64,000 nt of DNA from the IMG/VR virus record IMGVR_UViG_3300043185_000099, positions 32,001-96,000 of that record, one strand, 5' to 3'. Source of the stretch: a virus. The translations under genes were made by a program, and so were the position numbers. Positions 31 through 27,996 of the stretch are shown piece after piece. Position 1 is the first letter of the stretch, and each line of letters begins with the position of its first letter. The notes under the pieces were generated by a model. That model was not told the origin of the DNA, made no database searches, and worked only from the letters and a program-made list of their open reading frames with translations.

Positions 31-1053
31 TCACGGTTTCCTCCCGACGACCACAGGCTCCCAGGCTGGCTTAAGCGCGGTCCCGTACCCCTGCCACGTC
101 TTCGCGAGATCGGAGGAGGGCGCGGTGATGCGACGTGTGCCGTTCCATCGCTCGCCCGTCTTCTGGTAGCCCCAGTCTCCATCCTCAGTAGCAACGAGAT
201 CGGCCTTCCCTCCGTCCGCGCGGGACCGCATCGCGCGCGACGGGATAGCCGAGGCAATGTAGTCGTCGTGGACGGAGTCGAGGTGCAGCACCTCCTTGAG
301 ACGGACCCATTCCTCGGGCGTCGGCAGATAGATCTCCTCAGCTCTCTTTCCTCCCCGGCCCTCCACCCACGAGTAACGAGTCGTCCCGCCGAACACCAGG
401 CGATCCACCTCGACCCTGGACAGCCCGAGAGCCTCTCTCCGCTCGCGGAGGTACGCCTGGATCTCGCGTTCCCTCGCACGGTCTGTTCCTCGCAGCTTGT
501 CGACAGCCTTTGCCACGTTCGTCGACTTGGGAAATCCCGTCGAGTACGTCCAGGCTCGGATATCCACGTCAACAAACCCCACGCCTCGCATCGCTTTCAC
601 GAGCCGATGATAGGTTCTGGTCCCCCCGAACGCTCGAAGCATGCCGTCCGGCTTCAGCAGACGGTAGCACTCCGCCAGCCATCGTCTGTGCCACTTATCC
701 ATCTCCCGGAGGTGGTTGTTCTTGATTTCGTCGGGATCAACGGCCCGACCCCGGACGTGCCACCGCGGGTTCTCGCAAATGCATTTCCGTCGGCCGCGGC
801 GACGCCCCCCACAGACGGAACACGACGGATTCGCCCCTCCGAATCCAGAGGCCATCCCAAAAGACACCCACTCGGTCTTGCGGGCCCCGATACCAGGCCG
901 ACTCATCCCGGCCCCGGTCACCCACAACGTGTCCCACTCCGCGCCCATGAATTCTAAGCCGTAGGGGGGATCGCACACGACGGCGTCGATGGACTCGGGA
1001 GCAAATTGTCCGAGCCGCTCGACACAGTCTCCGTGCCACAATTCGATCTTCAC
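31..1053 (-). CDS. Catalytic (N-terminal) module of a split beta-class N6A/N4C DNA methyltransferase, with Cys-cluster and HTH-like insertions; no SAM-binding motif
   Basis: LWHGDC...VVCDPPY (motif IV), RLLKPDG..RAFGGTRTYHR, WTYSTGFPKS; ends GYGTALKPAWEPVVVGRKP-stop. No DPFxGSGT motif in the ORF. Confidence 0.85.
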   Translation of the reverse strand: MKIELWHGDCVERLGQFAPESIDAVVCDPPYGLEFMGAEWDTLWVTGAGMSRPGIGARKTEWVSFGMASGFGGANPSCSVCGGRRRGRRKCICENPRWHVRGRAVDPDEIKNNHLREMDKWHRRWLAECYRLLKPDGMLRAFGGTRTYHRLVKAMRGVGFVDVDIRAWTYSTGFPKSTNVAKAVDKLRGTDRAREREIQAYLRERREALGLSRVEVDRLVFGGTTRYSWVEGRGGKRAEEIYLPTPEEWVRLKEVLHLDSVHDDYIASAIPSRAMRSRADGGKADLVATEDGDWGYQKTGERWNGTRRITAPSSDLAKTWQGYGTALKPAWEPVVVGRKP

Positions 1054-3065: not shown

Positions 3066-5002
3066 AGCATGGCCTCCACGTCGGCGACGCCGATCACCTG
3101 GACGCCGTAGTCGCGCGCCTTCTTAGCCTTGCCGCTCGCCGATGTCGGGTCCTTCGCTACGAGATACGTGAGATCCTTGCCCACGCTCGTCTTGATAGCC
3201 CCTCCGGCGTCCTTGATCCGATCCTCCATTCCCTTGTCGCGGATCCCGGTGAAGCAGAACGACTTGCCCGACAGCTTCCCCTTCACGGGGCCCTTGACGG
3301 AGACGCCGGCCGCCAGCAGGTCCTCGACCAGCTTGCGGCAGCCGCGGAAACCGTCGACGAACGCTCCCGCCTTGGTCTCGCCCAGTCCGGGGATCGCGGC
3401 GAGGGCGGCGAGCGACGCCTTCCCCATCTTCTCCAGCGTGTCGAACCCGGCGTCGACGATCATCTGGCACACCGTCTGGCCGCAGAGGTCGATCCCGAGC
3501 GCGCCCACGAAGTCTGCGATGCGAAGCGTTTTCTTGGCGGAGAGGTTCTCCAGCATGCGCTCGGCCGTGCTGGTGCCGATCCTCTTCCCCGAGAGCTGGA
3601 AGTCTTCCAGATCGGTCACCGTGAGTCGGTAGATGTCGGCGAGGGAACGGACCTTGCCCGAGGCACAGAGCGCCTCGATCGCCGTGTCGCCCCACTCCTT
3701 CACGTCGAGTTTCTTGACCCACCGCTTGACGGCGCCGCTCTGCTGCGCCGGGCACCGCGCCCCGTCGTCGCAGACGAGGAACTCCCCCTTCTTGGACAGG
3801 GGCTTGCCGCACGACGGACAGTCGCGAGGGATCGCGAACCTCCCGTTCTGCGACGGCCGCAGCACCTGCTCCACGTATGGGATCACGTCGTTCCGACGCG
3901 AGACGAGCACGGTGTCGCTCATGCCGAGCAGGTTCTGCGGGCACTTCTCGGCGAGGCGGCGGATGTTGGACTCGTTGTGGAGGCTCGCCTGCGAGACGGA
4001 CGCACCCGCGAGGTTCACCGCGTCGAAGTACGCCACCGGAGTCACCCGGCCGCTCGCTCCTACCTGCCACACGATCTCGCGCAGCTTGGTGGGCTGCTTC
4101 TCGTGGGGGAACTTGAACGCCCGTGCGCCCTTGGGCCGCCCGTCGTGCTCGCCGAGGTGCTCCATGGCGGACAGGTCGTCGAGTTCGACGACGAGTCCGT
4201 CGATTTCGTAGTCCAGACCCTCCCGCGTCTTGGAGACATACTCCCTGTAGACGGAGAGGACATCGTCGACCGTAGACGCTGTGCTCCAATTGGGAGTTAT
4301 ACAGCCGAGCTTCTCCAGGAGCTTCAGCTCGACGGACTTGCGCACGATCCCGTGCGCGTCCGTGATCACTTGGTAGCAGATGACCGTGAGGTGCTTGCAC
4401 GGAGCCGGGTCCGACTCTCGCTTGGCGATGCCCGAAGCTGCGTTGCGTGGGTTCTTGTACTCGGGGACGTGCTTCCGATGATCGCTCCGCAGAAGAACGA
4501 TCTCACCGCGCACGAACCCGGTGAAGTCGCGCATCTTCCTCTGGACGCCCTTCATCAGCAGGACGTTGCGCGTGATGTCCTCGCCCATCTCTCCGTCTCC
4601 CCGCGTGAGAGCCTGGACGAGCTGCCCGTTCTCGTAACGGAGGCTGATGGAGATCCCATCGAGCTTCTCTGAGATCACGATGCCTGGATCAGCCGAGCCG
4701 ACATCCCCGGAAACGTGGGCCGCCCGAATCTTGGCGCTTACGTCGGTGTGCCACTCGGCGAGTTCCTGCTCGACCTGGACCTTGAGGAGACTGCCCATGG
4801 GCGCCCCGTGGCGTACCTTGGACCACCCGGACTTGGGCTTCGCGCCGACAGCCTTGAAGTAGGCGTTCTCGGGGTCCAGGTCTCGTAGTTGGTCCTCCAG
4901 CGCGTCAAACTCCGCATCCGACATGATGGGGGAGTCCCCGTAGTAGGCGTCCCTGGCCTGCTGGAGCTGCTCGACGAGGTCCTGGACTTCGCGTGTACTC
5001 AT
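3062..5002 (-). CDS. ligA: NAD-dependent DNA ligase
   Basis: YY..SPIMSDAEFD domain Ia, EKLDG adenylation motif, VRGE, NPRNAASG, YEIDGLVV, WQVGASGRVTPVA OB fold, CPSC..C..C zinc finger, HhH repeats, C-terminal BRCT (FCFTG...GKAKKA). GGGAGG SD upstream. Confidence 0.97.
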   Translation of the reverse strand: MSTREVQDLVEQLQQARDAYYGDSPIMSDAEFDALEDQLRDLDPENAYFKAVGAKPKSGWSKVRHGAPMGSLLKVQVEQELAEWHTDVSAKIRAAHVSGDVGSADPGIVISEKLDGISISLRYENGQLVQALTRGDGEMGEDITRNVLLMKGVQRKMRDFTGFVRGEIVLLRSDHRKHVPEYKNPRNAASGIAKRESDPAPCKHLTVICYQVITDAHGIVRKSVELKLLEKLGCITPNWSTASTVDDVLSVYREYVSKTREGLDYEIDGLVVELDDLSAMEHLGEHDGRPKGARAFKFPHEKQPTKLREIVWQVGASGRVTPVAYFDAVNLAGASVSQASLHNESNIRRLAEKCPQNLLGMSDTVLVSRRNDVIPYVEQVLRPSQNGRFAIPRDCPSCGKPLSKKGEFLVCDDGARCPAQQSGAVKRWVKKLDVKEWGDTAIEALCASGKVRSLADIYRLTVTDLEDFQLSGKRIGTSTAERMLENLSAKKTLRIADFVGALGIDLCGQTVCQMIVDAGFDTLEKMGKASLAALAAIPGLGETKAGAFVDGFRGCRKLVEDLLAAGVSVKGPVKGKLSGKSFCFTGIRDKGMEDRIKDAGGAIKTSVGKDLTYLVAKDPTSASGKAKKARDYGVQVIGVADVEAML

Positions 5003-5104
5003 CTGGCCTCCCGTACGGCCCGGTCCCCGCTTTTACACGCCGCGGCCGCCCAACGAGGCCCGCGCACTATGCGCGTCACCAGGACCTCGCGAAAACCAGT
5101 ATCT

Positions 5105-5113
5105 CCTCTATAG
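5105..5113 (+). promoter_or_regulatory. Candidate phage late-promoter motif CCTCTATAG
   Basis: Identical 9-mer on the minus strand at 48107-48115 and a near copy (GCTCTATAA) at 28805-28813. All three are intergenic and oriented toward structural-type genes. Confidence 0.4.
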
Positions 5114-5125
5114 CCCACCACCAGG

Positions 5126-5707
5126 GTGTCCCTGTCTCTCCGAGAAGGAGCGCTGTCGCAAGACGTCGAGGTGCTCCTCCACGGGGATCGGCTCGTGGTC
5201 GCGGCGGGCCCGGTGCTGCGCCAGACCCGATGGTCGGGTGGTCTCTGGGTCCTGTTCGTCACGCCGACGGGCGTGAGCGACTGGATCGTCGAGAGATCGA
5301 ACGGCGTACAGGCGACCGGATTCCTGCTGTTCGGCTCGGAGAACTACGCGAACTCGGCTGGCGACGCCGGCTACCGCAACTTCACGAGCATCCAGCCGGC
5401 CAACCCGCAGGCCACGACGTTCGCGATGGGCGCCAACACGCTCCCGATGGTCACGGGCGGAGGTCGGTTCCTCTTCCGCGTGTTCGAGACGGTGGCGCTG
5501 ACGCCGGCGGGCGTGCGCGCCGGCGGTCCCGCCGTCTACAACCTCAACGACATCCTCAAGGTCAGCGAGAACGGTCTCCTGTGCAACGATCCCGACGCCA
5601 ACCTGCTGGCCGCTACGGGTGGCACGGAGACTATCAAGGTGGGGACATGCTCGGCCATTCCCGATGACCGCAGTGGCAACAGGCTCGGCCTCGACTTCAA
5701 GTTCTGA
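5126..5707 (+). CDS. Hypothetical protein, probable virion (head decoration/cement-like) protein
   Basis: 193-aa Gly/Ala/Thr/Asn-rich ORF with strong GC3 codon bias, divergent from ligA and preceded by the CCTCTATAG motif. The structural role is inferred from composition only. Confidence 0.65.
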   Translation: MSLSLREGALSQDVEVLLHGDRLVVAAGPVLRQTRWSGGLWVLFVTPTGVSDWIVERSNGVQATGFLLFGSENYANSAGDAGYRNFTSIQPANPQATTFAMGANTLPMVTGGGRFLFRVFETVALTPAGVRAGGPAVYNLNDILKVSENGLLCNDPDANLLAATGGTETIKVGTCSAIPDDRSGNRLGLDFKF

Positions 5708-6332
5708 CCTGCTTGAAGAATCTCGATCCCCCTCCCTGATCGCCGTACCAGATCTGCGGCGTGTCGGCTGGACGGCTCTCTGCACCGAAGGTCGCGCTTC
5801 TGTTTCCGTCTCGCCCTCGCCCCGTCCGTCGCTTGATCGTGCCGCTTCCACTCGCGAGCAGACCACTCTGCGCGTCGATGTCATCGACGGGGCATCCGCG
5901 TTCGCACGTCCACGACGCAATAGTCTCGAGCCCGTCCGTTTCCGCGTACCCGTGGTCTGGCGTCCCTGGAGGCACCTTGCCCCAGCCGGTGACGCCCTCC
6001 GATCTCACGCCGTGGCGCTTGACGGCGACGCCTGTCTTGACTCTGCGAGTCCCGCTCTGTCGACATCCTGCAAGGTGCTGCAGGATCACGTTCGCCGGCC
6101 ACCGTCCTCCGGCCGTCTCGGGACCGTGAAATGTCTCTCCTGACGTCGATCTGCCTTCGTTTCGATGACCGAGACAGAGACCGTCTGGTCCTCGTCGCGT
6201 GCAGTGGGTCCCACCACCGTCGGATCCGATCCGGCTCCTGGTAATATCCAGCGCACCTGTGCCCCAGGTCGACACGTTGTCCGTGATGCTCTGTTGAGCC
6301 AGCGGCTTGCGCGAGATGGTGACGACTCTCAT
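5697..6332 (-). CDS. Stand-alone methyltransferase middle (target-recognition-region) module 3
   Basis: MRVVTISRKPL...NVSTWGTGALDITRSRIG...GRWPANVILQH...WTCERGCPV...YGDQGGGSRFFKQVRT-stop; ATG at 6332 overlaps the upstream stop (ATGA). Confidence 0.8.
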   Translation of the reverse strand: MRVVTISRKPLAQQSITDNVSTWGTGALDITRSRIGSDGGGTHCTRRGPDGLCLGHRNEGRSTSGETFHGPETAGGRWPANVILQHLAGCRQSGTRRVKTGVAVKRHGVRSEGVTGWGKVPPGTPDHGYAETDGLETIASWTCERGCPVDDIDAQSGLLASGSGTIKRRTGRGRDGNRSATFGAESRPADTPQIWYGDQGGGSRFFKQVRT

Positions 6333-6883
6333 GGACGTACCTGCTTGAAGAATCTCGCCGCCGCCGTGCCGCTGTCTCCGTAGTCCTCGGGTGGAACAAA
6401 CACTCGATGACGCGGGAGCACTGGCGCTTTCCCCCGGTCGACCTTGAACGGTTGCTGTCCAGGTCGTGCTCGACGGGACACTCCCGTTCCGGTACCGCCC
6501 GATTCGCTCTGTCGGTCCAGGATCCCGACGGGACACACCGGACCGCACTCGCCGTCGCACGCCTTGACATGCTGGAGGATCACGTTCGCCGGCCACCGAC
6601 CAAGCTGCTCGGACGGGCGCTCTGCCATGTAAACATCCGCGCTTCCACGACGCCCGAGTTTACCAAGAAGCTCGGTCTCGGACGCTCGGCTAGAGCCATA
6701 GATCCGCTCGGCCATGGGCGCCTTGTCAGACTTGCGAGCCGAGGCTCGCCGTGCAGCAGCGGGAGATCCTCCAGGAGACGATATCCGACAGGGATCCACG
6801 GCGAGGCCACCAGACCCCCAGCGCTGGATGTTCGCCGCGATGGGTCCCTCAGGTGGTTTACGCGCTACGGTGATCACCCTCAA
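6329..6883 (-). CDS. Stand-alone methyltransferase middle (target-recognition-region) module 2
   Basis: MRVITVARKPPEG..AANIQRWGSGGLAVDPCRI...GRWPANVILQH...CGPVCPV...YGDSGTAAARFFKQVRP-stop; TTG start overlaps the upstream stop, GGAGGAG SD. Confidence 0.8.
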   Translation of the reverse strand: MRVITVARKPPEGPIAANIQRWGSGGLAVDPCRISSPGGSPAAARRASARKSDKAPMAERIYGSSRASETELLGKLGRRGSADVYMAERPSEQLGRWPANVILQHVKACDGECGPVCPVGILDRQSESGGTGTGVSRRARPGQQPFKVDRGKAPVLPRHRVFVPPEDYGDSGTAAARFFKQVRP

Positions 6884-8418
6884 TCTTCGACTCCTCCGAT
6901 GTCGAGGCCGAAGATACCACCCTCCTGCTCAGCCTCGTTCTCCATGGGTGGAACTTCGCTCTCGATCCTGGGGGACAGGTCACCCGGGGTTTCTGCCGCC
7001 TTCCATCGCACGCGTTGTTCTGCAATCTGTGCGTACTCGACGTCCTGCTCGATGCCCACGAAGTTGAGTCCGTGCCCCTTCTTCCGACGTTTCGATTCGG
7101 CCATGCAAGCGAGCCCTGTCGTACCGGACCCCATGAATGGATCGCAGACCAGCGCACCATCCGAGACGTCTCTCAGAAGAGCTTCCATGACGGCAACCGG
7201 CTTCACTGTGGGGTGGTCCGACTGCACGATGCGCTTTTTCTCGACCGTACGCGTGTCGAACCGCTCGCGCATTTCATCAGGAACGTCGTCGACTGCCAGG
7301 CCGTCCTCGACCATCCTCTCCAAGATGTCTTTGTCCACATTCTCGGAGAGTTCTTCGCGCAGATCCTCGACACTCTCGTCCTCGCGCGGGAACAACCGCT
7401 CCGAGCGGATGACCTTTTCCCTCGGTACGACGCCAGCGTTGCGTTCCGTAGTGCTAGCCTTCGCGACGTAGTGGAACTCTCCAGGCGTGTCGAGGACGGC
7501 GATGGCGTCCCTGATCTCGTACCCGAAGTCCTCGACGGCACACGCCCCCGTCGTCCCGGTCGGGTCGTCCTCGTCCGAGATCAGGAGCAGGTGTGCTCCC
7601 GGACGCAGCACCCTGTCGATCTCCTTCATCCACGGGCTGGGATCGCCGACGGTCACGATGCCGTGCACGGACTTGTCGGCGAGGGCCGCGAAGTCGACGC
7701 TGGCCAAGTCGGCCTCGGCGATGATCACTGGCTCGCAGCTCGGGGGCGGGCTGATCATCGTGACGAGGTAGTCCCAGAGTTCCTGCGGGATGCCGTCCTT
7801 CATGTCTGCTCTCCTGGTCTGTTTGAAGAAGCGCGAGGCTCCGCCTCCATCGGCGTAGACGCGCGTGCCCGGATCGTTGAGGGCCACGTCGCCCTGTGGG
7901 TCTCCGTAGACGACACCCCTCTTCCGCGTCGCGGTCGCCGGATGCGGGTGAGGCCCGCGAGGATCGGCCCTCCCCGTGAGGGTCGAGGGTCGATCCCCGG
8001 ACTGGCGGTCGAGCGCCATCACGGCACATCCGTCCTGGCAGACCCACTTGACGACCCTCTCGTCCGGCAGTCGCTCGCTCTCGTACGCGACCCCCGCCGC
8101 GTCCCCGAACGGATGGGCCCCTCCCACGTGCCTGTTGATGACGTAGCCCGGCACCATGGTCGTGCCGTCGGGCCTGCAGCCCGTCTCGTGGACGAGCACG
8201 GTGTTGGCCGGCCAGCGACCCGACGCGCTCGACATCTGGCCGCTGCGGCGATGGGTCGCGCGACCTCCCACATGCCTGAAGTCCGGCTGCGGCACGGACG
8301 GAGGCACGCCCGCGATGCGGCACCCGTCCACGTCGATGGCGCCCGCGGCCCACCGCAGAGCGTTCGACGTCGCGCTGCCCTCCGAGCACACCTTGCGGGA
8401 GAGCGTCACCACTCTCAC
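6880..8418 (-). CDS. Methyltransferase middle module 1 fused to a SAM-binding C-terminal module (possible internal start at 7803)
   Basis: VRVVTLSRKV...GAIDVDGCRI...GRWPANTVLVH...ASRFFKQ, then a degenerate catalytic-like region, then FHYVAKASTTER...DHPTVKP (motif X), VCDPFMGSGTTG (motif I), FVGIEQDVEY (motif II). GTG at 8418 overlaps the upstream stop; AGGAG SD before ATG 7803. Confidence 0.85.
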   Translation of the reverse strand: MRVVTLSRKVCSEGSATSNALRWAAGAIDVDGCRIAGVPPSVPQPDFRHVGGRATHRRSGQMSSASGRWPANTVLVHETGCRPDGTTMVPGYVINRHVGGAHPFGDAAGVAYESERLPDERVVKWVCQDGCAVMALDRQSGDRPSTLTGRADPRGPHPHPATATRKRGVVYGDPQGDVALNDPGTRVYADGGGASRFFKQTRRADMKDGIPQELWDYLVTMISPPPSCEPVIIAEADLASVDFAALADKSVHGIVTVGDPSPWMKEIDRVLRPGAHLLLISDEDDPTGTTGACAVEDFGYEIRDAIAVLDTPGEFHYVAKASTTERNAGVVPREKVIRSERLFPREDESVEDLREELSENVDKDILERMVEDGLAVDDVPDEMRERFDTRTVEKKRIVQSDHPTVKPVAVMEALLRDVSDGALVCDPFMGSGTTGLACMAESKRRKKGHGLNFVGIEQDVEYAQIAEQRVRWKAAETPGDLSPRIESEVPPMENEAEQEGGIFGLDIGGVED

Positions 8419-10157
8419 TCCGGTCTTCTCGCGACGACGATGGGCTCCCAGGCCGGCTTCAGAGCGGTGCCGTACCCATCCCACAGCTTGGCCTCCTCGG
8501 TCGCCGGGACCGTCACCGGGACCTGGACCGGAATCTGACGGATGCCTGTCCCGTAGGCGCCGAGAGATCCGCCCGGACTCGTGTGGATGCGCGGGTCTTT
8601 GCCGGCAAGAACGTCGTTGAGATTTTCTCCGCCGACGCCGCGAGAGTAGCCGACTACTTGTCTCTCGGCCTTGGCTCTCCTGTCGATCTGCTTGGAGATG
8701 TTGGTCGATTTCGGGAAGCCACTGTTCCCGGTGACGAAGACGCGACCGTTGTGGCGAGCGAGGAAGGCTCCGGTCGGCACCCGGACACACCACACGTCGC
8801 CCGTGTAGTGTTCCCGAACGGGATCCTTGAGGTGTCGTCGTACGAGCTGTGTCTGCGGGTTCTCATGCAGAGAGACGGTCGCCTTGCGCGGATTGTCGCG
8901 CGCCTGCCACCCGATGACGTGTGCGAGCGTCTGGAACCACTCGCGATCCGCATCGTCCTTCTGATAGAAAGCCTTGGCGGCCGGGGTTCCGTCACCGCGG
9001 AGAGCCGCGTGGAGGAATGCCTCCTTCTCCTCCAGCGACATCCTCCAGAGCAGATCATACGTTGGGTGCTTGTCTGGCAGGTCCTCGCGCACTCGGGCGG
9101 CCATTTCCCCAGTGAAGAACCACATGTGCTCGTCGTACGGCAGCCCCCGGTAGAGGCGCGGACGAACGTAGTGCTTGCGATACGGCACCAGATCCCCCAC
9201 GAGAGCATGGATCTCCTCGACGAACTCGCGGCCCGATCCGTCGACCCTCGTACTCTGGCAGATCCTGACTCCGGTGCCGTGCTCGTCGAATCCACCCTCC
9301 GTCCATACCCAGGCCAGTAATTCGGCGTAGCGAAGGCCACCGTCCAGGCCTGAACCATCGTGGTAACCGGCGAGAGGGAGGTTGAGTGTGTTCCAGCGAT
9401 TGATCTCCCCGGCTTCCACCGCGTTCCAGTGATCCTCGCGAGTCGTGACGCGGACGCCGTCCCGCTGCTTCCTGATCCGCGCTCGCTTGTAGACCCGATG
9501 GTTCGGTGTGAGCATCTGGTCTGTGTTGTCGTTGACAAACCGGACCATCTCCCCGTCGTAGGGAGCGACGATCTTCTCCTGGACAGGCAAGAGCAGGACG
9601 GCCTCGGTCTCATGGTCCCAGCACGCCACCCGTTCCCTCTCGTCCACATCGATGCCGAGCTTCCAGCCGTGTTCGGTCAAGATCTCGGACGAGGCATCGA
9701 GACACCCGTAAATCCAGGAGTGCAGCTCGACGTCGACGAGACCCGCGCGCCGCATCGCCCTGACCATGCGATGGTAGGTCCGCGTGCCGCCGAACGCCTT
9801 GACGACGCCTCCCGGCCGCAGCTTGCGGAGTACGAGGTCCCAGAAGTCGGGATCGAACGCGATGCCCGTCGCGTCCCAGACCTTCCCCATGAAGCCCCCA
9901 CCTCTTCGCACTTGGTCGTGAGAGTCCAGCCGGGTCCGGCCGAAGGGTGTCCCGGGATCATTCATGCGAGGACTTCCCCCACGGCTGGCGGACGTCATGC
10001 GAGGACTTCCCCCACGGCTGGCGGACGTCAGATCGTACGGAGGATCGGTCACGACGACGTCGAGACTGTCATCTGGAAGTTCTGCCAAACGAAGCAGGCA
10101 GTCACCTTGCCAGAGTCTGATGTTGGCTGTAGATCTTGTCTTGGTGGCGGACATCAC
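8415..10157 (-). CDS. Catalytic (N-terminal) module of the split beta-class DNA methyltransferase, intein-containing
   Basis: LWQGDC...VVTDPPY, KLRPGG..KAFGGTRTYHR, SWIYG[intein]SGFPKS; ends GYGTALKPAWEPIVVARRPE-stop. No SAM-binding motif. Confidence 0.88.
   Translation of the reverse strand: MMSATKTRSTANIRLWQGDCLLRLAELPDDSLDVVVTDPPYDLTSASRGGSPRMTSASRGGSPRMNDPGTPFGRTRLDSHDQVRRGGGFMGKVWDATGIAFDPDFWDLVLRKLRPGGVVKAFGGTRTYHRMVRAMRRAGLVDVELHSWIYGCLDASSEILTEHGWKLGIDVDERERVACWDHETEAVLLLPVQEKIVAPYDGEMVRFVNDNTDQMLTPNHRVYKRARIRKQRDGVRVTTREDHWNAVEAGEINRWNTLNLPLAGYHDGSGLDGGLRYAELLAWVWTEGGFDEHGTGVRICQSTRVDGSGREFVEEIHALVGDLVPYRKHYVRPRLYRGLPYDEHMWFFTGEMAARVREDLPDKHPTYDLLWRMSLEEKEAFLHAALRGDGTPAAKAFYQKDDADREWFQTLAHVIGWQARDNPRKATVSLHENPQTQLVRRHLKDPVREHYTGDVWCVRVPTGAFLARHNGRVFVTGNSGFPKSTNISKQIDRRAKAERQVVGYSRGVGGENLNDVLAGKDPRIHTSPGGSLGAYGTGIRQIPVQVPVTVPATEEAKLWDGYGTALKPAWEPIVVARRPE
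8724..9704 (-). mobile_element. Intein (327 aa) with LAGLIDADG/DOD-type homing endonuclease domain
   Basis: Block A CLDASSEILTEHGWK, block B LTPNHRVY, endonuclease-like LLAWVWTEG and FLHAALRGDG, blocks F/G YTGDVWCVRVPTGAFLARHNGRVFVTGN followed by Ser+1. Removal restores WIYG-SGFPKS, matching WTYSTGFPKS in the paralogue at 31-1053. Confidence 0.92.
9962..10030. repeat. Perfect 33-bp tandem duplication (in frame; TSASRGGSPRM twice)
   Basis: tcatgcgaggacttcccccacggctggcggacg at 9962-9994 and 9995-10027, plus tca. Confidence 0.95.
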
Positions 10158-10938
10158 CTGCGCTCGTTGTGTGAAGTCATTCCACGTCCCTGACTATCGA
10201 GCCCGGACGGCTCAGTTCTGTTCGCGCGGCTGCATGACTCAGGCACCACTCTGCCGACTCCCCCCTCATCGTCCCCGAAAGAGGATCGTCCTGACGTGCA
10301 AGACTTGCCAGCAGACGTTTGAGAGACAGAGCGGACGCCCACGCCATGGGCGCGGCGTCTACTGCTCCCGTCGTTGTATGTATGAGGGACTCGCCGAACA
10401 CAGAGCCCCACGTCAGACGATGGTCTGTGTCGGCTGCGGAGCAATCTTCCAGATTCTTGCTTGCCAGCAACGAGACCGCAGAGGGGCAGGCACGTACTGC
10501 TCGCGAGCCTGCCGCGACGAAAATCGGCGCGGGCCGAAGCATCCTCAGTACCTCCACGGCGCAGGGGCCTACCATCGCGGACCGAATTGGCAGCGGCAGA
10601 AACGTCACGCGAAAGCGCGGGACGGCCATCGGTGCCTGCGCTGCGGAACCCGTGAACAAGATCTTCGGGCGCGTGGCAAGTTCCTCCACGTCCATCACGT
10701 CGTGCCCTATCGCCTCTGTTCCTCTTGGAAGAGTGCCAACCGCTTAGAGAACCTCCGATCCCTGTGCGAGAACTGCCATCGCGTCGAGGATGCAGAGTTC
10801 CAGGCGCTGGAACGCGATCTGATTGCTGATCTGGAGAAGATCTCGTCAAGCACATCTGTCCATGTGGCCCCTGAAGACGGCGAGACTCTCGGCACCCGTC
10901 AAGACGGTCAGCGAAGTTGTGGAGCAGGCACACCATGA
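10144..10938 (+). CDS. Free-standing HNH endonuclease with three CxxC...CSxxC zinc-ribbon repeats
   Basis: CARC..FCSRGC, CKTC..YCSRRC, CVGC..YCSRAC; ARDGHRCLRCG...LHVHHVVP...ANRLENLRSLCENCH. Start uncertain: GTG 10144 is in frame with the 9964 ORF. Confidence 0.85.
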   Translation: MADITCARCVKSFHVPDYRARTAQFCSRGCMTQAPLCRLPPHRPRKRIVLTCKTCQQTFERQSGRPRHGRGVYCSRRCMYEGLAEHRAPRQTMVCVGCGAIFQILACQQRDRRGAGTYCSRACRDENRRGPKHPQYLHGAGAYHRGPNWQRQKRHAKARDGHRCLRCGTREQDLRARGKFLHVHHVVPYRLCSSWKSANRLENLRSLCENCHRVEDAEFQALERDLIADLEKISSSTSVHVAPEDGETLGTRQDGQRSCGAGTP

Positions 10939-10973
10939 CCTGTCTACCCGCCCGAGTGCCATGTCGAAAACAT

Positions 10974-12536
10974 CTACTCGACCTCCAGGATGACGGGCCG
11001 CTGCTTCGACTCCTTGAATTTGGTCTCCTGGCCCTTCGCGTTCTTCACCTTCTCCTCGAGTGTCTCGATCGGCGTGTGATCAGTCAGGAATCGTCGGCAA
11101 GCGAATTCAATGCGAACCGGCACCCGTGCGAACGGTTTCTGGTCGCGAGATTTCAGGCACTGAAAGATTGCCTGCCCGAGCTTGGCCAGCTCCTCGTCGA
11201 TCCACGTGGCCGTCACGATGTCCGCAGATCGCTCGCATTCGTTCGCATACGACAGGGCCGTGAGGTTGTACCTTCCGCCGGCTTTCTCGGCCGCGCGCCA
11301 CCCCTCGCGGCTGATCTGGAACAGGGCGACGACGGCAATTCCCATGCCGCGGTTGAAGGACATGGCGAGCTTTTTGAGGTCGCGGATCACCTCGTTAAGC
11401 CTCTCTGTCGTGCTGCTGTAGCGACCCCTGGCGCTCATCAGCCCCGCGTGGTCCACGAAGATTGACCTGAACGGAGTCTTGCTGAAGAGCAGCTCGGCAC
11501 GGCTCCGCAGGTCCACGATCGTGAAATCGTTCTTGTCGGGGTCCGCCACCTCGATATGGATGTCCCCATACTCCGACGGATCGACCGGATACGGACCGCT
11601 CGGTGGCACGACACGGACCTTGTTGATTGATGGGACCACGAATTCACGGAGAAACTGCTCTTCATGCGGAAGCAACTTGCCATCCCTGATCTTCTCGTAG
11701 TCGAGACCAAGCGTAGGGATGCCCAGGCGTTTCCGCACATCGCGGAAGTCGTCGTGAGCACTGTGCATCGTGTAGAGCAGGTTCCGGACCTGGAGGTACG
11801 GCATCTCCAGGCTGAAGTAGACGGAGGAGCACCTGTGGTAAATGGCCTGCGTGTAGGCCCAGTGGAGGGCCCAGCTGGACTTGAGTGCGCCGGTGAATCC
11901 CGCGTGGACCCACAGCTCGTTCCGTTTGGCGCCGTTGAGCGTGACGTCGATCTGCTCGATCCCGCAGTGTTGGCCGACACCGAAGTTGGGATCGGCCTTG
12001 ACTTGGTCGTACCGCTTGAAGAAGTCCTCCGCGTCCTGCATCGCGTTGCCAGACAACTTGCCGCCCAATGTCGGGGCTACGATGTCGTGGCTCTTGTCCA
12101 AAACGTAGCGCACCGCGTCGACAGCCCCCATGAGCTTGGTGGACTTCCCCCTGGGATCCTTGATCTCGAGGCCCGAAGAGACGATCTGTGCCATCTCCTT
12201 GGCCAGGTCCATCACGATGCGGTTGCGCCGATCACGGGCCTTCTCCTCCAAGTAGGCTACGAAGTCGCCTCGCGTGCGCGCTTTGATAGCGGAGAGCCAC
12301 TCGATACGATCGACGACATCTACTTCCTGGACCCCTGAGAAGTGGCTCCGCATCGTCTGGATTGTCGGAGCGTGGCCGTGCTGCTTAAAAAAGTCCTGGA
12401 TGTATGTCCAAATGACGTTGTCCTCGACCGTGTCGAAGCCCAGACCCGAGTCCGCCATCGCGTGGTAGTTGAGCGCGATCTCGTTGCTGCTGTCGGTCGG
12501 ATCGGCGACGAAGCAGGAGCGCAGAAGATTTTTCAC
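10974..12536 (-). CDS. DnaB-like (SF4) replicative helicase
   Basis: H1 HAGFTGALKS (variant Walker A), H1a YFSLEM, H2 IFVDHAGLM, H3 VVALFQISRE, H4 ECERSADIV, Arg-finger region CLKSRD. Confidence 0.85.
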   Translation of the reverse strand: MKNLLRSCFVADPTDSSNEIALNYHAMADSGLGFDTVEDNVIWTYIQDFFKQHGHAPTIQTMRSHFSGVQEVDVVDRIEWLSAIKARTRGDFVAYLEEKARDRRNRIVMDLAKEMAQIVSSGLEIKDPRGKSTKLMGAVDAVRYVLDKSHDIVAPTLGGKLSGNAMQDAEDFFKRYDQVKADPNFGVGQHCGIEQIDVTLNGAKRNELWVHAGFTGALKSSWALHWAYTQAIYHRCSSVYFSLEMPYLQVRNLLYTMHSAHDDFRDVRKRLGIPTLGLDYEKIRDGKLLPHEEQFLREFVVPSINKVRVVPPSGPYPVDPSEYGDIHIEVADPDKNDFTIVDLRSRAELLFSKTPFRSIFVDHAGLMSARGRYSSTTERLNEVIRDLKKLAMSFNRGMGIAVVALFQISREGWRAAEKAGGRYNLTALSYANECERSADIVTATWIDEELAKLGQAIFQCLKSRDQKPFARVPVRIEFACRRFLTDHTPIETLEEKVKNAKGQETKFKESKQRPVILEVE

Positions 12537-13505: not shown

Positions 13506-15020
13506 CTACTCCAACGTCGGATCGGGCGGGGCGTCGTCACTAGGGTTTGCAACCGAAAGGAAGTCGAACAACCCTCCTCCGTCGTCTGCCACGTCGGCCA
13601 TCCCGAGCGGCTCCTGGTCCCTGATCCTGGCCGTAGCCAATCCGAGGTAGGTCGCGCTGGCGTCGATTCCGATGTAGTCCCGAGCCTCTCGAAGAGCCAC
13701 GAACCCTGTCGTGCCCGAGCCAGAGAACGGATCGAGCACCGTGCATGGTGTCATGTCGTGCGGAGAGCACGAGCACGTCGGTTCCCATCCGACCGTCTTG
13801 TCCGGGTGCCGCGCCTTCCATGCGTTGATCTCTTTGCCAGATAGCTTGGATGCTCTGAATCCCATGTTGCCCGCACCCACGTTGCCGGGCTGCCCGATCT
13901 CAAGACGCTTACCTGGATCGCGGTGTGCCGGCTCCGGCGCAGGCGGGCCCTTCTCCACGACCCTCCTCCACGGAGAGCCGCACGACGAGCAACACCCCAG
14001 GGATGTTCCAGCTTGGATGCAGAGGCGCGGGAGTTCGGGCGGGAACACGGCGAAGTGCGCTCCCGGGTACGGCTTGGTGTTGATGGGCCACACAGATCGC
14101 CGATTACGGCCCGGCTGGTTAGGGGCCTCCTGTGGTCTGCGTTTGCCCCCGATGGAGAGCCGCTCTGGCGTCTCCCAGTTGTTGCCCCCAGCCGCGCCCA
14201 TCCTCTCGTCGGCCCAGGGTTCCATGATCGCGACGTGGTCGTAGTAGTAGTCGTGTGGGTTCTTCGTCAGCAGGAAGATGTACTCGTGGGAGGTTGTCGG
14301 TCGATCCTTGACCGCCTCTGGCATTGGGTTTCCTTTGCTCCACACAATGTTGGACCGCACGTTCCACCCGTCCTCCTGCAGCGCGATGGCGACGCGATGC
14401 GGGATCATCACGAGATTCTTCGGGCGCAGACCCTCGGGAACACGCGACGACTGGCCCTGTGGCAGATTCTTCCACTTCGTCGGTGAGACTTGCTTCACAC
14501 GGTTGGCCGTGTAGCTATCTCCCAGGTTGAGCCACAGGGTCCCGTCGTCTCTGAGGACTCTCCACACCTCGCGGAACACCTCGATGATGTGCTCGACGTA
14601 CATCCATGGGGTTGGCTCAAGTCCGAGGTGCCCGCGCCACGCCCCGCACAGCGTACAAGACTCGGAGCGGTCGACCCTGTACTGCTCCGTCTCGCCGTGG
14701 TCATTCTCAAGACCAGGACCGAGAGTCTTCTCCGCACCCGCCGACACCAGGGTGGAGCCGAGATCTTCTCGGCCGTTGGTGCTGCCCTTGCGCACGACAG
14801 ACGCGTCCTCCCACCGGTGCGGGCACGCGGCATCGCCTCCCCACACGCTCGGCTCGGAATCGTAGGCGCGGAGGCCCCAGTACGGGGGCGACGTCACGAC
14901 GCAGTGGACCGAGGAAGACGGTAGCTCTCGCAGAGCCTCGCGACAGTCGTGGCCGTAGTAGAGATGCGCCTCGGGCGGGCGGTCTCCTGTCGGCCGACGG
15001 ACGACGACGGGCTCAGGCAC
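13506..15020 (-). CDS. Full-length beta-class DNA methyltransferase (SPPY; N4-cytosine/N6-adenine)
   Basis: VVTSPPYWGLR, RVLRDDGTLWLNLGDSY, IVWSKGNPMPE, HEYIFLLTK, HFAVFPPELP, VLDPFSGSGTTG, YIGID. AGGAGG SD before GTG 15020. Confidence 0.93.
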   Translation of the reverse strand: MPEPVVVRRPTGDRPPEAHLYYGHDCREALRELPSSSVHCVVTSPPYWGLRAYDSEPSVWGGDAACPHRWEDASVVRKGSTNGREDLGSTLVSAGAEKTLGPGLENDHGETEQYRVDRSESCTLCGAWRGHLGLEPTPWMYVEHIIEVFREVWRVLRDDGTLWLNLGDSYTANRVKQVSPTKWKNLPQGQSSRVPEGLRPKNLVMIPHRVAIALQEDGWNVRSNIVWSKGNPMPEAVKDRPTTSHEYIFLLTKNPHDYYYDHVAIMEPWADERMGAAGGNNWETPERLSIGGKRRPQEAPNQPGRNRRSVWPINTKPYPGAHFAVFPPELPRLCIQAGTSLGCCSSCGSPWRRVVEKGPPAPEPAHRDPGKRLEIGQPGNVGAGNMGFRASKLSGKEINAWKARHPDKTVGWEPTCSCSPHDMTPCTVLDPFSGSGTTGFVALREARDYIGIDASATYLGLATARIRDQEPLGMADVADDGGGLFDFLSVANPSDDAPPDPTLE

Positions 15021-16626
15021 GCTGCCTCCTGGCATCGGCTGCCAGCGCGTTGAAGATGTCGTCGACGCTGTTCGCGTCGGAGACCAGCACGTTCTTGTCG
15101 TCCTCCCCCTTGATGCGGCGCCCCATGACCTCCTCGATGAGCTGCATCTTCTTCCTGAGCACGGCCATGACCTGCACGTCGATGGTCCCGCGCGCCACCA
15201 GGTGGATCGCGTAGCAGCGGTCGTGCGTCGACCCGATGCGGATCATGCGGCCGAGAATCTGGATGTAGTCCCCCGCGCTCCAGGGGTTGTCGTAGAAGAT
15301 CAGCGCCTTCGCAGCCTGGAGATTGATGCCCTCCGCCCCCGCCGACGTGATCCAGCAGACGCGCACGTCCGACTTCGGGTCCTGGAAGATCCGCATCGCC
15401 TCCTCACGCTCGCCCTCATCCTCGTCTCCGGTGATGCGGACCGTCTTGAGTCCGTACTTCTTGGAAGATGCTTCTCGTTCCAGGATATTGACCATTTTCC
15501 GGAAGCGGCTGAAGACGATCACTTTCTCGTCGGCGAGATCCCCCTCCGTGAGGATTTCAAACAGCTCGTCCATCTTGTCACTCTCGCCATCGCACTCGAC
15601 CAGCTCCGGGTGGTCGACGATCTGCTGGCAGTAGATCAAGGCGGTGAGCTTGGTTGTCTCCTTTGTCTCGCCCGTCTGATCGATCTCCAGGAGCCCCGAC
15701 AGCGCCTCGTGGTACTTCACGGCCTGCTCTGGCGTCATGGCCATGCGGTGTTCTTTCACCGTGAGGATGGGCAGTTCCTTCGCCACGTCCATCTTGGCTC
15801 GGGCGAGGAAGTACGGATCGATCTTCTCGCGGAAACGCTTGATCTGGTCGCTACGATAGCCGATGATCACCGGGATTTGCCGTCGGCTTCCAGGGATGGG
15901 CTGGAGTCGGGTGAGACAGTACTCGGACATGAACCTGTTCTTGGACGTGGGAAACAGGCCCGGCACCAGCAACGAGTAGATCCCGAATCCCTCGATCAGG
16001 TTATTTTTGATGAGGGTGGCAGTGAGCGCCCACATCCTCCGAGCGCGCTCGGGATGGCCGAGGTGCCGCACGACTTGATACGTCTGCGTCGATGGGTTCT
16101 TGTAGGCCGTAGCCTCGTCGGTCACGAGGATGTAGTCCTTCAAGTTCTGCAGATGCTTGATGTCCCGGCGCGCGCTGGCGTAACCCAGGATCAGGACTGT
16201 GGGCCCGACAGAGTGCTGGAACTCCTTGTAGACCGCGTGCCTTTGTGCAGGGGCGCCACTGCACGGCAGCGCCTTGATTGACCCTGGCGTGCAGAACTTC
16301 GCAAACTCCGTGGCCCACTGCATCACCACGCTCTTATTCGTGAGGATGATGACCCTCGTGTTCGGCTCCTTCGCCCAGACGAAGCACAGCGCCGCGATGC
16401 TGACCAAGGTCTTTCCCGTGCCGGTGTCGTCGCCCAGCAGGAACCTGTTCATCATCACGAGATGCAGGACGGCCTGCACCTGGTAGTAACGAATGCGGAG
16501 CGGCTGCTCACTCCCGTCGAAATCCGTGAACGTCGGCTTCAAGAGCGGCGTAGCCCGGAGAGACAGGTCGGTGCGCGTCCTGATATCCCGGAGCTTGTCG
16601 TGGGCAGCCTTCAGGCGCTCGTCCAT
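15013..16626 (-). CDS. SNF2/SF2-family helicase
   Basis: IRYYQ (Q motif), LLGDDTGTGKT, TDEAT (motif II), ALTAT, KVIVFSRF, GAEGINLQAA, DNPWS...QILGRMIRIG. Confidence 0.92.
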   Translation of the reverse strand: MDERLKAAHDKLRDIRTRTDLSLRATPLLKPTFTDFDGSEQPLRIRYYQVQAVLHLVMMNRFLLGDDTGTGKTLVSIAALCFVWAKEPNTRVIILTNKSVVMQWATEFAKFCTPGSIKALPCSGAPAQRHAVYKEFQHSVGPTVLILGYASARRDIKHLQNLKDYILVTDEATAYKNPSTQTYQVVRHLGHPERARRMWALTATLIKNNLIEGFGIYSLLVPGLFPTSKNRFMSEYCLTRLQPIPGSRRQIPVIIGYRSDQIKRFREKIDPYFLARAKMDVAKELPILTVKEHRMAMTPEQAVKYHEALSGLLEIDQTGETKETTKLTALIYCQQIVDHPELVECDGESDKMDELFEILTEGDLADEKVIVFSRFRKMVNILEREASSKKYGLKTVRITGDEDEGEREEAMRIFQDPKSDVRVCWITSAGAEGINLQAAKALIFYDNPWSAGDYIQILGRMIRIGSTHDRCYAIHLVARGTIDVQVMAVLRKKMQLIEEVMGRRIKGEDDKNVLVSDANSVDDIFNALAADARRQRA

Positions 16627-26757: not shown

Positions 26758-26760
26758 AGC

Positions 26761-27996
26761 TCAAAGGCTCCTTGCGGCCGGCAAATCATACCGACGACGA
26801 TGATTAGCGATGGTGTCCCGATGGACATTGACTTGCCTGGCGAGAGCAACGTCAGGCATCGTGCCAACCAGGGCATGCCAAGCCGGCATCTGAGTCTCGG
26901 TATACACCGGGATGGCGAGTTTGCGACGGTAATGCAGCACCGTCACTGGCGAGAGGTTGAACTTCGTCGCGATGTGGGAGTCAGGCATCGTGCCAACCAG
27001 GGCATGCCACGGTCGCGAAGACAGTTTTCGTGTGGGGGCGACAGCTTTGAACCCTGCCAACTTTCGTGAACGAGCGACATCCGAGATCCCGAGACCGACT
27101 CGTTCGCTGATCTCTTGATCCGTCAACTTGCCAAACCACTTGTGCCACGGTTGAGGTCGAAGGCCCCGCAACGGCTCGTACGGGTCTCGTTCGCTGATCA
27201 GGCCTCCAACTTTGGCACGCATCGCGCACCAGTCTTGCCAAATCTTGTACTTGCGAGCGAGCCGCATACCGGTCCCAGCATAGATGGCCTTACAGAACAG
27301 TTCCGCTTGCGAGCCGTCCATACGGACCGTTGTCGACGTCACGCTGTGTGGAACACCCAGGGTGTCCAGAAGTCGAGAGAGGAACACCAGGTCACGACGC
27401 GGGCCACACGCGATGCCGGCACGGAGGACACTGCCTCCAGGCATCTTGCGATTTTTGACGCTCATGATCCATCCATCTCCGTCGCAGACACCACGCAAGA
27501 AATCGGTGGCCCACAACTCAGGAATGAAGACCATCCTTGTTCCAGTCTTTGACTTGCGAGGCCGAATACCCAGCCGCAGGAGACGACCGACAAGCGTATC
27601 GCTGACCGTGACGGAGGCATGTTGGACCTTGGGTGTTTTCCTCAACTTGGTCCCGCACACCTCGCGCTGCTTCGGCGTCTTCCTGATGATCTTGTTCGGG
27701 TTCCCCACGAAGTTGTGGAACCAACGAGCTTGCTCCTCGTCCGTGCTGACGAACTGAATCCTCCACGAGCCCTTCGCCGGTTTCGTGATGTTCCCATCAC
27801 TGAAAATGAGCCCGAGCGCGTAAGCCATGTCCGGCGTCCACTCGTCGAAGGCATCCAGTCGCAACTGAGTCTCCGTCGCACGACGCTTGAACTGCCCTCG
27901 ACATTTTGCCGAACACATCCGAGCCATGCCATACCGGCTTGTCGAGAACTGCTGCTCGCAGATCTCGCACAGGGCCGTCTTCATGTGCGTTGACAT
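26761..27996 (-). CDS. Free-standing LAGLIDADG homing endonuclease with an N-terminal zinc ribbon and C-terminal HTH-like repeats
   Basis: CEIC...MCSAKC; AYALGLIFSDG and FLRGVCDGDG; three WHxxxGxxxD-HTH-like repeats; Lys/Arg-rich and lower GC than its neighbours. Confidence 0.85.
   Translation of the reverse strand: MSTHMKTALCEICEQQFSTSRYGMARMCSAKCRGQFKRRATETQLRLDAFDEWTPDMAYALGLIFSDGNITKPAKGSWRIQFVSTDEEQARWFHNFVGNPNKIIRKTPKQREVCGTKLRKTPKVQHASVTVSDTLVGRLLRLGIRPRKSKTGTRMVFIPELWATDFLRGVCDGDGWIMSVKNRKMPGGSVLRAGIACGPRRDLVFLSRLLDTLGVPHSVTSTTVRMDGSQAELFCKAIYAGTGMRLARKYKIWQDWCAMRAKVGGLISERDPYEPLRGLRPQPWHKWFGKLTDQEISERVGLGISDVARSRKLAGFKAVAPTRKLSSRPWHALVGTMPDSHIATKFNLSPVTVLHYRRKLAIPVYTETQMPAWHALVGTMPDVALARQVNVHRDTIANHRRRYDLPAARSL
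26851..27009. repeat. Exact 30-bp direct repeat encoding WHALVGTMPD (129-bp period)
   Basis: gtcaggcatcgtgccaaccagggcatgcca at 26851-26880 and 26980-27009. Confidence 0.93.

Follow-up and report, generated by a model that had tools for sequence, protein, structure and literature searches.

A candidate shared hub subunit of a modular, split class-beta DNA methyltransferase in a huge phage

The stretch of DNA analysed here, referred to as the window, is 64,000 nucleotides (nt) long and comprises bases 32001-96000 of the 151,955-bp IMG/VR virus record IMGVR_UViG_3300043185_000099. Its minus strand encodes a 307-aa methyltransferase-like protein (7803 to 6880). We think it probable that a huge phage uses this protein as the one shared hub of a modular class-beta DNA amino-methyltransferase, that it is completed by a separately encoded catalytic module (N module), and that an additional part of the hub, the pseudo-N lobe (PSN), forms a lobe of its own. 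As judged from the sequences, the S-adenosylmethionine (SAM) motifs (X and I-III, with beta1-beta3) are located on the hub and the DPPY motif with beta4-beta7 on the N modules, and thus on different polypeptides. The record was rated about 29% complete by CheckV and, because 151,955 bp would represent such a small fraction, it is taken to be derived from a very large phage.

The distribution of the motifs is that of a split enzyme. Both N modules, N1 and N2, contain DPPY and lack FxGSG, the hub contains FxGSG and lacks DPPY, and the genes overlap (GTGA). The hub is the 3'-part of a longer open reading frame (ORF), in which it is preceded by a target recognition domain (TRD). The ORFs of N1, TRD1-hub, TRD2, and TRD3 follow one another on the minus strand from 10157 to 5697 and are translationally coupled by overlapping stop and start codons. 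In the 152-kb record, the hub is present once, along with two N modules and four TRD modules. The modules and their parts are the following:

6880-7803, minus strand: hub subunit C', 307 aa, in which the pseudo-catalytic half is followed by a hairpin/helical insert, the SAM-binding half, and finally a C-terminal tail; this subunit represents the 3'-part of the ORF 8418-6880 and is also readable from its own ATG; the stop codon is at 6882-6880
7811-7815, minus strand: Shine-Dalgarno (SD)-like AGGAG, 7 nt 5' of the in-frame ATG at 7803-7801
7453-7791, minus strand: PSN, hub residues 5-117, catalytic-half homolog without the catalytic motif
7630-7647, minus strand: GDPSPW loop at the motif IV position, after beta4'
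7228-7452, minus strand: variable insert, hub residues 118-192, absent from some homologs
6994-7227, minus strand: SAM-binding half, with motif X HPTVKP, beta1 and motif I DPFMGSGTTG, and beta2 FVGIE
6892-6921, minus strand: C-terminal tail motif GGIFGLDIGG, family consensus L-x-D-L-F-G
7819-8418, minus strand: TRD module 1, which continues in frame into the hub, starting with MRVVTLSRK and ending with SRFFKQ
8415-10157, minus strand: catalytic module N1, with DPPY and without motif I, interrupted by an intein, ending with PAWEPIVVARRPE
6329-6883, minus strand: free-standing TRD module 2; its TTG start codon overlaps the hub stop codon (TTGA), and GGAGGAG lies 7 nt upstream
5697-6332, minus strand: free-standing TRD module 3; its ATG overlaps the TRD2 stop codon (ATGA)
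31-1053, minus strand: catalytic module N2, with DPPY and without motif I, carrying a Cys cluster and a helix-turn-helix (HTH) insert, ending with PAWEPVVVGRKP
L006:10312-10967, corresponding to genome positions 26312-26967 upstream of the window: TRD4, frameshifted

The ORF 8418-6880 reads, in order, TRD1 up to SRFFKQ, the residues TRRAD, the Met encoded by the ATG at 7803-7801, about 114 residues, FHYVAKAS, HPTVKP, and DPFMGSGTTG. Direct reading thus bore out a preliminary description of this DNA, which had noted a block without DPPY between RFFKQ and FHYVAKAS. The same description had proposed that the block resembles the catalytic half of a methyltransferase, and five lines of evidence agreed with this. 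First, the Pfam family PF01555 (N6_N4_Mtase) matched residues 57-262 of the 307-aa product over profile positions 34-220/221 (E 2e-17), with 64.2 bits at a curated cut-off of 26.7, so that the hub is recognised by the class-beta family profile; the SAM half alone covers positions 149-220. Second, a hidden Markov model (HMM) built solely from the inserted block of 23 homologs matched the DPPY-bearing N-halves of intact methyltransferases of 450-580 aa (E 1e-8 to 1e-14). Third, PSN was aligned with stand-alone N modules by hhalign (E 1.7e-5, probability 78%). Fourth, BLASTP aligned the hub with the intact enzyme of Synechococcus phage S-CAM4 (E 4e-21) in one alignment that included the SAM halves, and hub residues 47-106 were placed on the stretch that directly follows DPPY. 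Fifth, in the AlphaFold2 (AF2) model of the hub a strand (46-52), the GDPSPW loop, and a helix follow one another as at the motif IV position. The block alone had no significant Pfam match (best Methyltransf_11, E 0.05, sub-threshold); the evidence for its homology comes from the family HMM, from hhalign and BLASTP, and from the Pfam alignment of the full-length product. The elements of PSN are ordered as helix, short strand, beta4', helix, beta5', helix (PTGxxGAC..ED), beta6' (EIRDAIAV), and FHYVAKAS.

In the PDB, the sequence of the SAM half matched M1.HpyAVI (deposited as DpnA), M.BceJIV, and CcrM (E 2e-9 to 3e-7), and in the hub model this half was superimposed on M.BceJIV with a root-mean-square deviation (rmsd) of 1.9 A at 39% identity (VIA). 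Motif I (DPFMGSGTTG) and motif X (HPTVKP) were invariant over 104 homologs. The product thus lacks the catalytic motif and retains the SAM-binding motifs, as had been predicted. The hub is labelled 'DNA methyltransferase' in PHROGs, it has 1301 homologs at E <=0.001, and its AF2 model reached a predicted local distance difference test (pLDDT) value of 91.7. The variable insert is the least conserved region of the hub (majority fraction 0.32) and was modelled as a long beta-hairpin (128-139 and 182-193) bearing an acidic helical excursion.

The separation of the motifs is not confined to the window. Profiles were generated for the N module, the TRD, PSN, and the SAM half, and all six frames of the relatives' loci were scanned. 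DNA was available for 12 loci (L007, L009-L013, and L090-L095), and a 13th locus was represented by gene calls only. Each of the 12 DNA loci contained exactly one hub composed of PSN and the SAM half, and one hub was also present in the 13th locus and in the genome of the window. DPPY-bearing ORFs that matched the N-module profile and lacked FxGSG adjoined the hub in 12 of the 12 DNA loci, with a weak match in the case of L095, so that also there the SAM and DPPY motifs are found on different, side-by-side polypeptides. In the 13th locus, a 473-aa PF01555 gene was called immediately upstream of the hub. Separate TRD ORFs or TRD fragments adjoined the hub in 10 of the 12 loci, and no free TRD was found in the remaining two (L093 and L095). 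One hub was accompanied by six N and six TRD modules in L013, and by four N and four TRD modules in L094. The syntenic neighbourhood comprises a DnaB helicase upstream and an NAD-dependent ligase downstream. Stand-alone N modules are abundant, and the free TRD modules represent a family of about 30 full-length stand-alone proteins of 196-222 aa without a Pfam family. A Pfam search with TRD2 and TRD3 yielded no family at E <=0.01, including no HsdS-like Methylase_S, and both matched weakly a PHROG called DNA methyltransferase.

Natural fusions connect the same modules. Among 136 representatives related to a fused form, the commonest architecture was TRD-PSN-SAM half, and the others were PSN-SAM half, the classical N-TRD-SAM half without PSN, N-TRD-PSN-SAM half, PSN-SAM half-N, TRD-PSN-SAM half-N, and three TRDs followed by PSN and the SAM half. 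A single ORF with the order N-TRD-PSN-SAM half (L012:9101-10795) was directly checked, and the 899-aa protein P0297 contains three full tandem TRDs on one hub. The fusion of the modules in several different orders is evidence of the Rosetta-stone type for a joint function of the N module, TRD, and hub. Together with the models described below, the comparison of the genomes thus predicts the complementation of the DPPY modules by the hub that had been proposed earlier.

Several additional observations were made at these loci. The fusions that end with an N module (P0296, P0314, P0315, and P0371; PSN-SAM half-N and TRD-PSN-SAM half-N) include the order PSN-SAM half-N, which brings back the unpermuted order of motif I followed by motif IV. 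In L093, the gene just upstream of the TRD-hub gene (9411-10004) has a precomputed Pfam match to MT-A70 (PF05063, the METTL3 family); the N-module profile did not match this ORF, yet it matched ORFs downstream of the L093 hub. In L091, L095, and the contig of P0058, the methyltransferase clusters are located near a gene for an Apyc1-like anti-Pycsar metallo-beta-lactamase, and the L091 cluster is also near PARP-domain genes and a gene for an EcoO109I-like nuclease.

The internal start of the hub was analysed next to the fusion junction. The AGGAG at 7815-7811, separated by 7 nt from the in-frame ATG at 7803, is present as previously described. In 50 of 56 fused TRD-hub homologs a Met occurs in the linker of 8-12 residues, 3-4 residues before the conserved IP-x-EL (background Met frequency 1.9%). 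On the DNA level, one of the tetramers GGAG, GAGG, or AGGA was found 4-10 nt before a junction ATG or GTG in 10 out of 11 loci (the window and ten relatives; background 0.146 per codon), these loci being related and hence not independent trials. Two relatives lack the junction Met and have AAGGAGG 7 nt before a GTG (L094) and GGAGG 4 nt before a GTG (L095). The SD motif and a GTG are thus conserved where Met is absent, and therefore they are not kept by constraint at the protein level. The SD motif itself is encoded by common linker residues, Q-E (CAG GAG). Taken together, the conserved SD motif and start codon fit, as far as sequence can tell, with the production of both TRD1-hub and a TRD-free hub, and the earlier proposal that the hub can be made alone became plausible by their conservation, which extends to loci with Val at this residue. 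Fused genes without a junction Met might have been expected to lack free TRDs, and this idea was refuted by L094, which has no Met and four free TRD modules.

These results bear on the possibility that only the co-translated pair of N1 and TRD1-hub works, that the hub is never made alone, and that the extra modules are redundant, decaying, or partners of hubs outside the record. The frameshift in TRD4 and the incompleteness of the record are in accord with it. However, the free TRDs belong to a conserved family of about 30 stand-alone full-length proteins and are translationally coupled to the hub gene via overlapping stop and start codons, single-hub arrays with up to six N and six TRD modules recur in relatives, and the internal SD motif and start codon are conserved in the DNA, including the GTG cases. 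We regard this possibility as unlikely.

Structural models were used to characterise how the modules might be assembled. For the complex of TRD1-hub (512 aa) with N2 (340 aa), our own alignments were supplied, and three runs and three controls were performed. The score was 0.87 in all three runs, and the best of the three controls scored 0.00; 0.87 was reached by 58 of 80 solved complexes and by 2 of 110 mismatched pairs, counts that are rough given the use of our own alignments. The runs agreed in at least 64% of the contacts, and the partner pLDDT was at least 66. TRD1-hub residues 423-426 (LVCD, beta1, before DPFMGSG) were paired with N2 residues 23-27 (DAVVC, beta4, before DPPY), and residues 453-456 (beta2) with the N-terminal strand of N2 (3-6). 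In addition, the PSN helix 286-299 (PTGTTGAC..ED) contacted the N2 helix 144-156 (TRTYHRL), with 289-293/149-152 among the best pairs, as were the two strand pairings. The hhalign alignment places these two helices on each other as homologous elements, and their contact may therefore be a pseudo-two-fold one. PSN residues 302-307 (IRDAIA), the first strand of the TRD, and WPAN all contacted the LKPAWEP strand at the C-terminus of N2.

The natural single-chain relative mentioned above (L012:9101-10795) was modelled with AF2 with a pLDDT of 81.8 and a predicted template modelling score of 0.84. Its model matched M.RsrI with Z 24.0 and an rmsd of 3.2 A over 216 residues, spanning model residues 1-543, CcrM likewise with Z 24.0, and METTL3 with Z of about 12. 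Because the alignment to M.RsrI and CcrM extends from residue 1 to about 540, the canonical domain of this model is made up of the N module and the SAM half, and PSN does not take part in it. The preliminary description had suggested a structure prediction of the 7803-6880 product, and its result was divided: each lobe is methyltransferase-like, and no single canonical fold was obtained. Residues 1-105 (Z 6-7) and 100-285 of the hub-alone model matched methyltransferase folds only separately, with Z values of 6-8 (VIA), and the top Foldseek matches were class-beta methyltransferases with a TM of about 0.2 and an rmsd of about 22 A. In terms of the model, this poor fit reads as the presence of two lobes and not as a failed model. 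Hence, the hub-alone model does not contain a seven-stranded fold, which was formed by the N module and the SAM half in the fused relative. The PSN strand EIRD... was not assigned as a strand in the lone hub and was a long strand in the fused model.

The models also argue against a placeholder function of PSN, in which it would cover the exposed edge of beta1 within the same molecule, as a dummy half, and be displaced by an incoming DPPY module, with a chaperone or exchange role. In favour of such a function, PSN is homologous to the half that must sit beside beta1, and without a cap the hydrophobic edge of a lone half-Rossmann SAM domain would be exposed. Yet the AF2 monomer does not pack PSN canonically on the SAM half and the lobes align only separately, natural N-TRD-PSN-SAM half chains hold PSN alongside an N module that occupies the canonical site, and in the complex model PSN is not displaced but touches N2 via the equivalent helices. 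This explanation appears doubtful, marginally more so than the restriction to N1 and TRD1-hub.

The preliminary description had loosely likened the hub to METTL14, i.e. to a catalytically dead partner of an active methyltransferase, and this part was not supported as worded. In METTL14 and MTA9, motif IV is eroded but the fold is complete, whereas the DPPY-less half-fold of the hub (beta4'-beta7') was not combined with the SAM half in the models; in both, the SAM half is completed by a DPPY module, in trans or in cis. According to the models, the enzyme is split, has a composite active site, and carries a pseudo-half in addition, which differs from a pair of complete folds of which one is active and the other inactive. 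The hub may depend on the N module for SAM binding.

Two further interpretations concern the missing catalytic motif. No (D/N/S)PP(Y/F/W) was present at the motif IV loop of the hub or of any of the 56 aligned homologs, in which the loop has the form G(D/N/E/T)P(S/T/E/G/A)... (e.g. GNPE.H, GEPTEEQ, and GTPT..Q) without a conserved aromatic residue or Asp/Asn-Pro-Pro; the catalytic motif IV, which class-beta enzymes carry in the same chain, is instead located on the separate N modules. It is very unlikely that the hub is an autonomous methyltransferase with GDPSPW as a non-canonical catalytic loop: the Pfam match covers nearly the whole domain and the loop in the window keeps D-P...P-W, but the loop varies freely among homologs, the hub alone is not modelled as one canonical fold, and it is invariably accompanied by DPPY modules without a SAM motif. 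Equally improbable is a regulatory decoy, which would sequester N modules or compete for SAM or DNA without supporting catalysis. Pseudo-enzymes often regulate and the hub lacks the catalytic motif, but the N modules have no SAM half of their own and no other partner nearby, the predicted interface sets motif I beside DPPY as in active enzymes, and PSN-SAM half-N fusions exist.

The block had also been described as a decayed copy of the catalytic half, and this was contradicted by its conservation. Among the best 120 of the 1301 homologs, all 120 carried PSN and none had a catalytic motif. In 56 aligned homologs, 25 PSN columns were conserved at >=90%, and the majority fraction was 0.63 for PSN, compared with 0.48 for the TRD and 0.71 for the core of the SAM half. 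Because all of these 120 homologs carry the block and its conservation outranks that of the TRD, PSN is not a decaying copy but, by the alignments, a conserved non-catalytic domain under purifying selection. It is extremely unlikely that an ordinary single-chain gene has recently decayed here or only looks split owing to an assembly error or frameshift, as could be imagined for a metagenome assembly with a frameshifted TRD4 elsewhere in the genome, since PSN is under strong purifying selection and the same split points, start/stop overlaps, and PSN recur in many independent assemblies at 35-56% identity, the identical splits ruling out an assembly artefact.

The assembly that we favour, a single shared hub completed by N modules, can be formulated as follows. 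Based on the two independent models and the fusions, the N module would dock on the hub such that beta4 and DPPY lie beside beta1 and FxGSG of the hub, resulting in one seven-stranded domain with a composite active site. PSN is predicted to stay outside of this catalytic fold as a separate conserved lobe that touches the equivalent helix of the N module. We infer that it is a built-in pseudo-protomer and docking platform, which holds the TRD opposite the catalytic site. The conserved first strand of the TRD (M-R-V-V-T-x-x-R-K) would complete PSN, in cis or in trans. In class-beta enzymes, the TRD and the catalytic site of one chain face apart, so that the TRD of one protomer serves the site of the other and dimerisation is needed (PMC7544214). 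PSN may replace the homodimer that is otherwise required. Translation from GTG 8418 would yield TRD1-hub and translation from ATG 7803 a TRD-free hub, which could accept TRD2, TRD3, or TRD4 in trans. One hub with several N and several TRD modules would then lead to several methylation specificities, presumably shielding the phage DNA from host restriction. More tentatively, and with somewhat less than even confidence, we propose a fully combinatorial methyltransferase, in which the hub supplies the SAM half and a pseudo-protomer, the TRDs donate strands, the N modules act in trans, the internal start frees the TRD-free hub, and n N modules with m TRD modules give rise to up to n x m specificities. 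Under this combinatorial reading, n x m would amount to 2 x 4 for the present phage and to 6 x 6 for a relative.

Several points weigh against the shared-hub interpretation. At a completeness of about 29%, other hubs may exist elsewhere in the genome, and the frameshift of TRD4 indicates that some modules may be dead. The PSN HMM matched the stand-alone N modules of the same loci weakly (E 0.07-1), far less well than the N-halves of intact enzymes. The structural evidence is wholly predicted; contact lists and secondary structure were the only basis for proposing that PSN acts as a pseudo-protomer and that the TRD donates a strand, and the complex modelling covered TRD1-hub with N2. Moreover, the halves of split genes tend to pass complex prediction through their likeness to solved single-chain methyltransferases. 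Thus, the high score of the complex means, at the level of the models, that the two chains can rebuild a known fold, and it is not evidence of binding.

The modules share their motifs with single-chain class-beta enzymes, i.e. S-CAM4 (NC_031900, 46.3-47.2 kb), M.RsrI, CcrM, and M.BceJIV. The common motifs are DPPY...RVLKPGG...FEIRD, KPAxEPIVVAxKP, GRWPAN/GRYPSN, YFY.AKA..ER, HPTVKP, and DPFxGSGTTG, and the fold is the same as that of M.RsrI and CcrM once the N module and the SAM half are combined (fused-relative model, Z 24). In contrast to the single-chain enzymes, the chain is cut here into N, TRD, and hub genes with a duplicated boundary strand, several N and TRD paralogs are accompanied by one hub, and the hub has the extra DPPY-less copy of the catalytic half that is absent from them. 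As modelled, the hub as a chain lacks two defining features of the class, motif IV and a self-contained fold, and the system as a whole would work like a class-beta enzyme.

In the dimeric class-beta enzymes M.EcoP15I (Mod2) and CcrM, one protomer recognises the target and the other catalyses (PMC7544214). The PSN lobe that contacts the equivalent N-module helix in the complex model fits with a pseudo-dimer of this kind. However, M.EcoP15I and CcrM are homodimers of complete chains, whereas here the 'second protomer' would be a half-fold that is fused to the SAM half of the first. METTL3-METTL14 and the ciliate MTA1-MTA9 keep a conserved paralogous element with an eroded motif IV as the obligate structural partner of an active DPPY/DPPW element, a role that PSN may also have. 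In contrast, their active subunits bind SAM themselves, whereas here the catalytic motif is encoded on another polypeptide than the SAM site, and only half a fold makes up the dead element.

Naturally split methyltransferases are known from the cytosine-C5 class, i.e. M.AquI (alpha and beta) and M.EcoHK31I. As in the present system, the catalytic-domain motifs of these split C5 enzymes and of M.SssI fragments are distributed over two polypeptides, which must assemble in those enzymes and would have to do so here. They differ in that they belong to the C5 and not to the amino class, consist of two fixed pieces, and have neither exchangeable catalytic or TRD modules nor a pseudo-half. In type I restriction-modification methyltransferases (M2S1) and in the multispecific C5 methyltransferases of Bacillus phages with tandem TRDs, the specificity resides in a separable or exchangeable TRD unit, and phages use several TRDs to cover several host systems. 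Unlike in type I enzymes, which have HsdS-type specificity subunits, the TRD modules here have no HsdS-like Pfam match and the catalytic chain is also split; the TRD modules appear to dock by a duplicated beta-strand and not by a coiled coil. For M.SssI, fragment complementation was achieved in the laboratory (PMC3404938).

Some further features of the modules were noted. The public gene call for TRD1-hub (P0001, 451 aa) begins at ATG 8235 within the TRD (GQ-M-SSASGRWPAN) and thereby loses the first strand, which is conserved; judged by its homology to about 50 relatives as well as to TRD2 and TRD3, the ORF starts at GTG 8418, which overlaps the N1 stop codon (GTGA). A programmed -1 frameshift at this junction was considered and rejected, because a slippery heptamer is absent, the stop and start codons overlap, and the downstream modules likewise use overlaps with their own starts. 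TRD4 is split over two frames, with profile positions 1-43 in one and 64-194 in the other and a shift near L006:10755-10838; the shift could stem from recoding or from an error of the assembly, or TRD4 could be a pseudogene. The ATG of TRD4 overlaps the stop codon of a 316-aa SWIM-like protein that ends with ...TLRRRKP.

N1 contains an insert of about 327 aa between SWIYG and SGFPKS, and a Pfam search with N1 yielded no family at E <=0.01, neither PF01555 nor an intein. The insertion site is empty in some relatives, and other relatives carry inteins in the hub itself, including L010 (853 aa) and representatives with a SAM half that is split by 350-450 aa. In N2, DPPY is followed by a Cys-x2-Cys...Cys-x-Cys cluster, and the module also contains an HTH_31-like insert (E 0.001). 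The same Cys cluster recurs in several N modules of L013, and therefore it marks a subtype of the catalytic module.

The tail motif G-[GS]-[ILVM]-F-[DGES]-[LFIM]-x occurred only three times in all six-frame ORFs of at least 60 aa in the 152-kb record. All three copies lie 11-23 residues from the C-terminus of the three SAM-motif proteins of the record, namely the hub (6892-6921, minus strand), a 509-aa methyltransferase (13506-15035, minus strand), and a 375-aa methyltransferase (L006:7217-8344, minus strand). From its sequence and position, the motif looks like a docking peptide common to the three proteins, which is thus a possible function of the hub tail. It may resemble sliding-clamp-binding motifs.

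A megablast search of window positions 5000-11000 against deposited phages yielded no match, and none of 50,697 deposited phage genomes encoded a close homolog spanning at least 80% of the hub. A published description of this architecture was not found in the searchable literature, most subscription journals and REBASE being outside of that search. The hub family is nevertheless large, with more than 1000 homologs in metagenomes. Gene callers mis-start these genes and label the pieces as 'hypothetical' or 'DNA methylase', so that annotation would gain from the recognition of the modules.

If the proposed assembly is correct, a natural half-fold pseudo-protomer together with an active site that is split between chains would show how far the class-beta fold can be dismantled. 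It would represent a new quaternary solution to the dimer requirement of class-beta enzymes and a compact anti-restriction strategy, and programmable or split methyltransferases might be built on it as a natural scaffold. For the biology of large phages, it would explain how a small amount of coding sequence could suffice for the methylation of many host restriction motifs.

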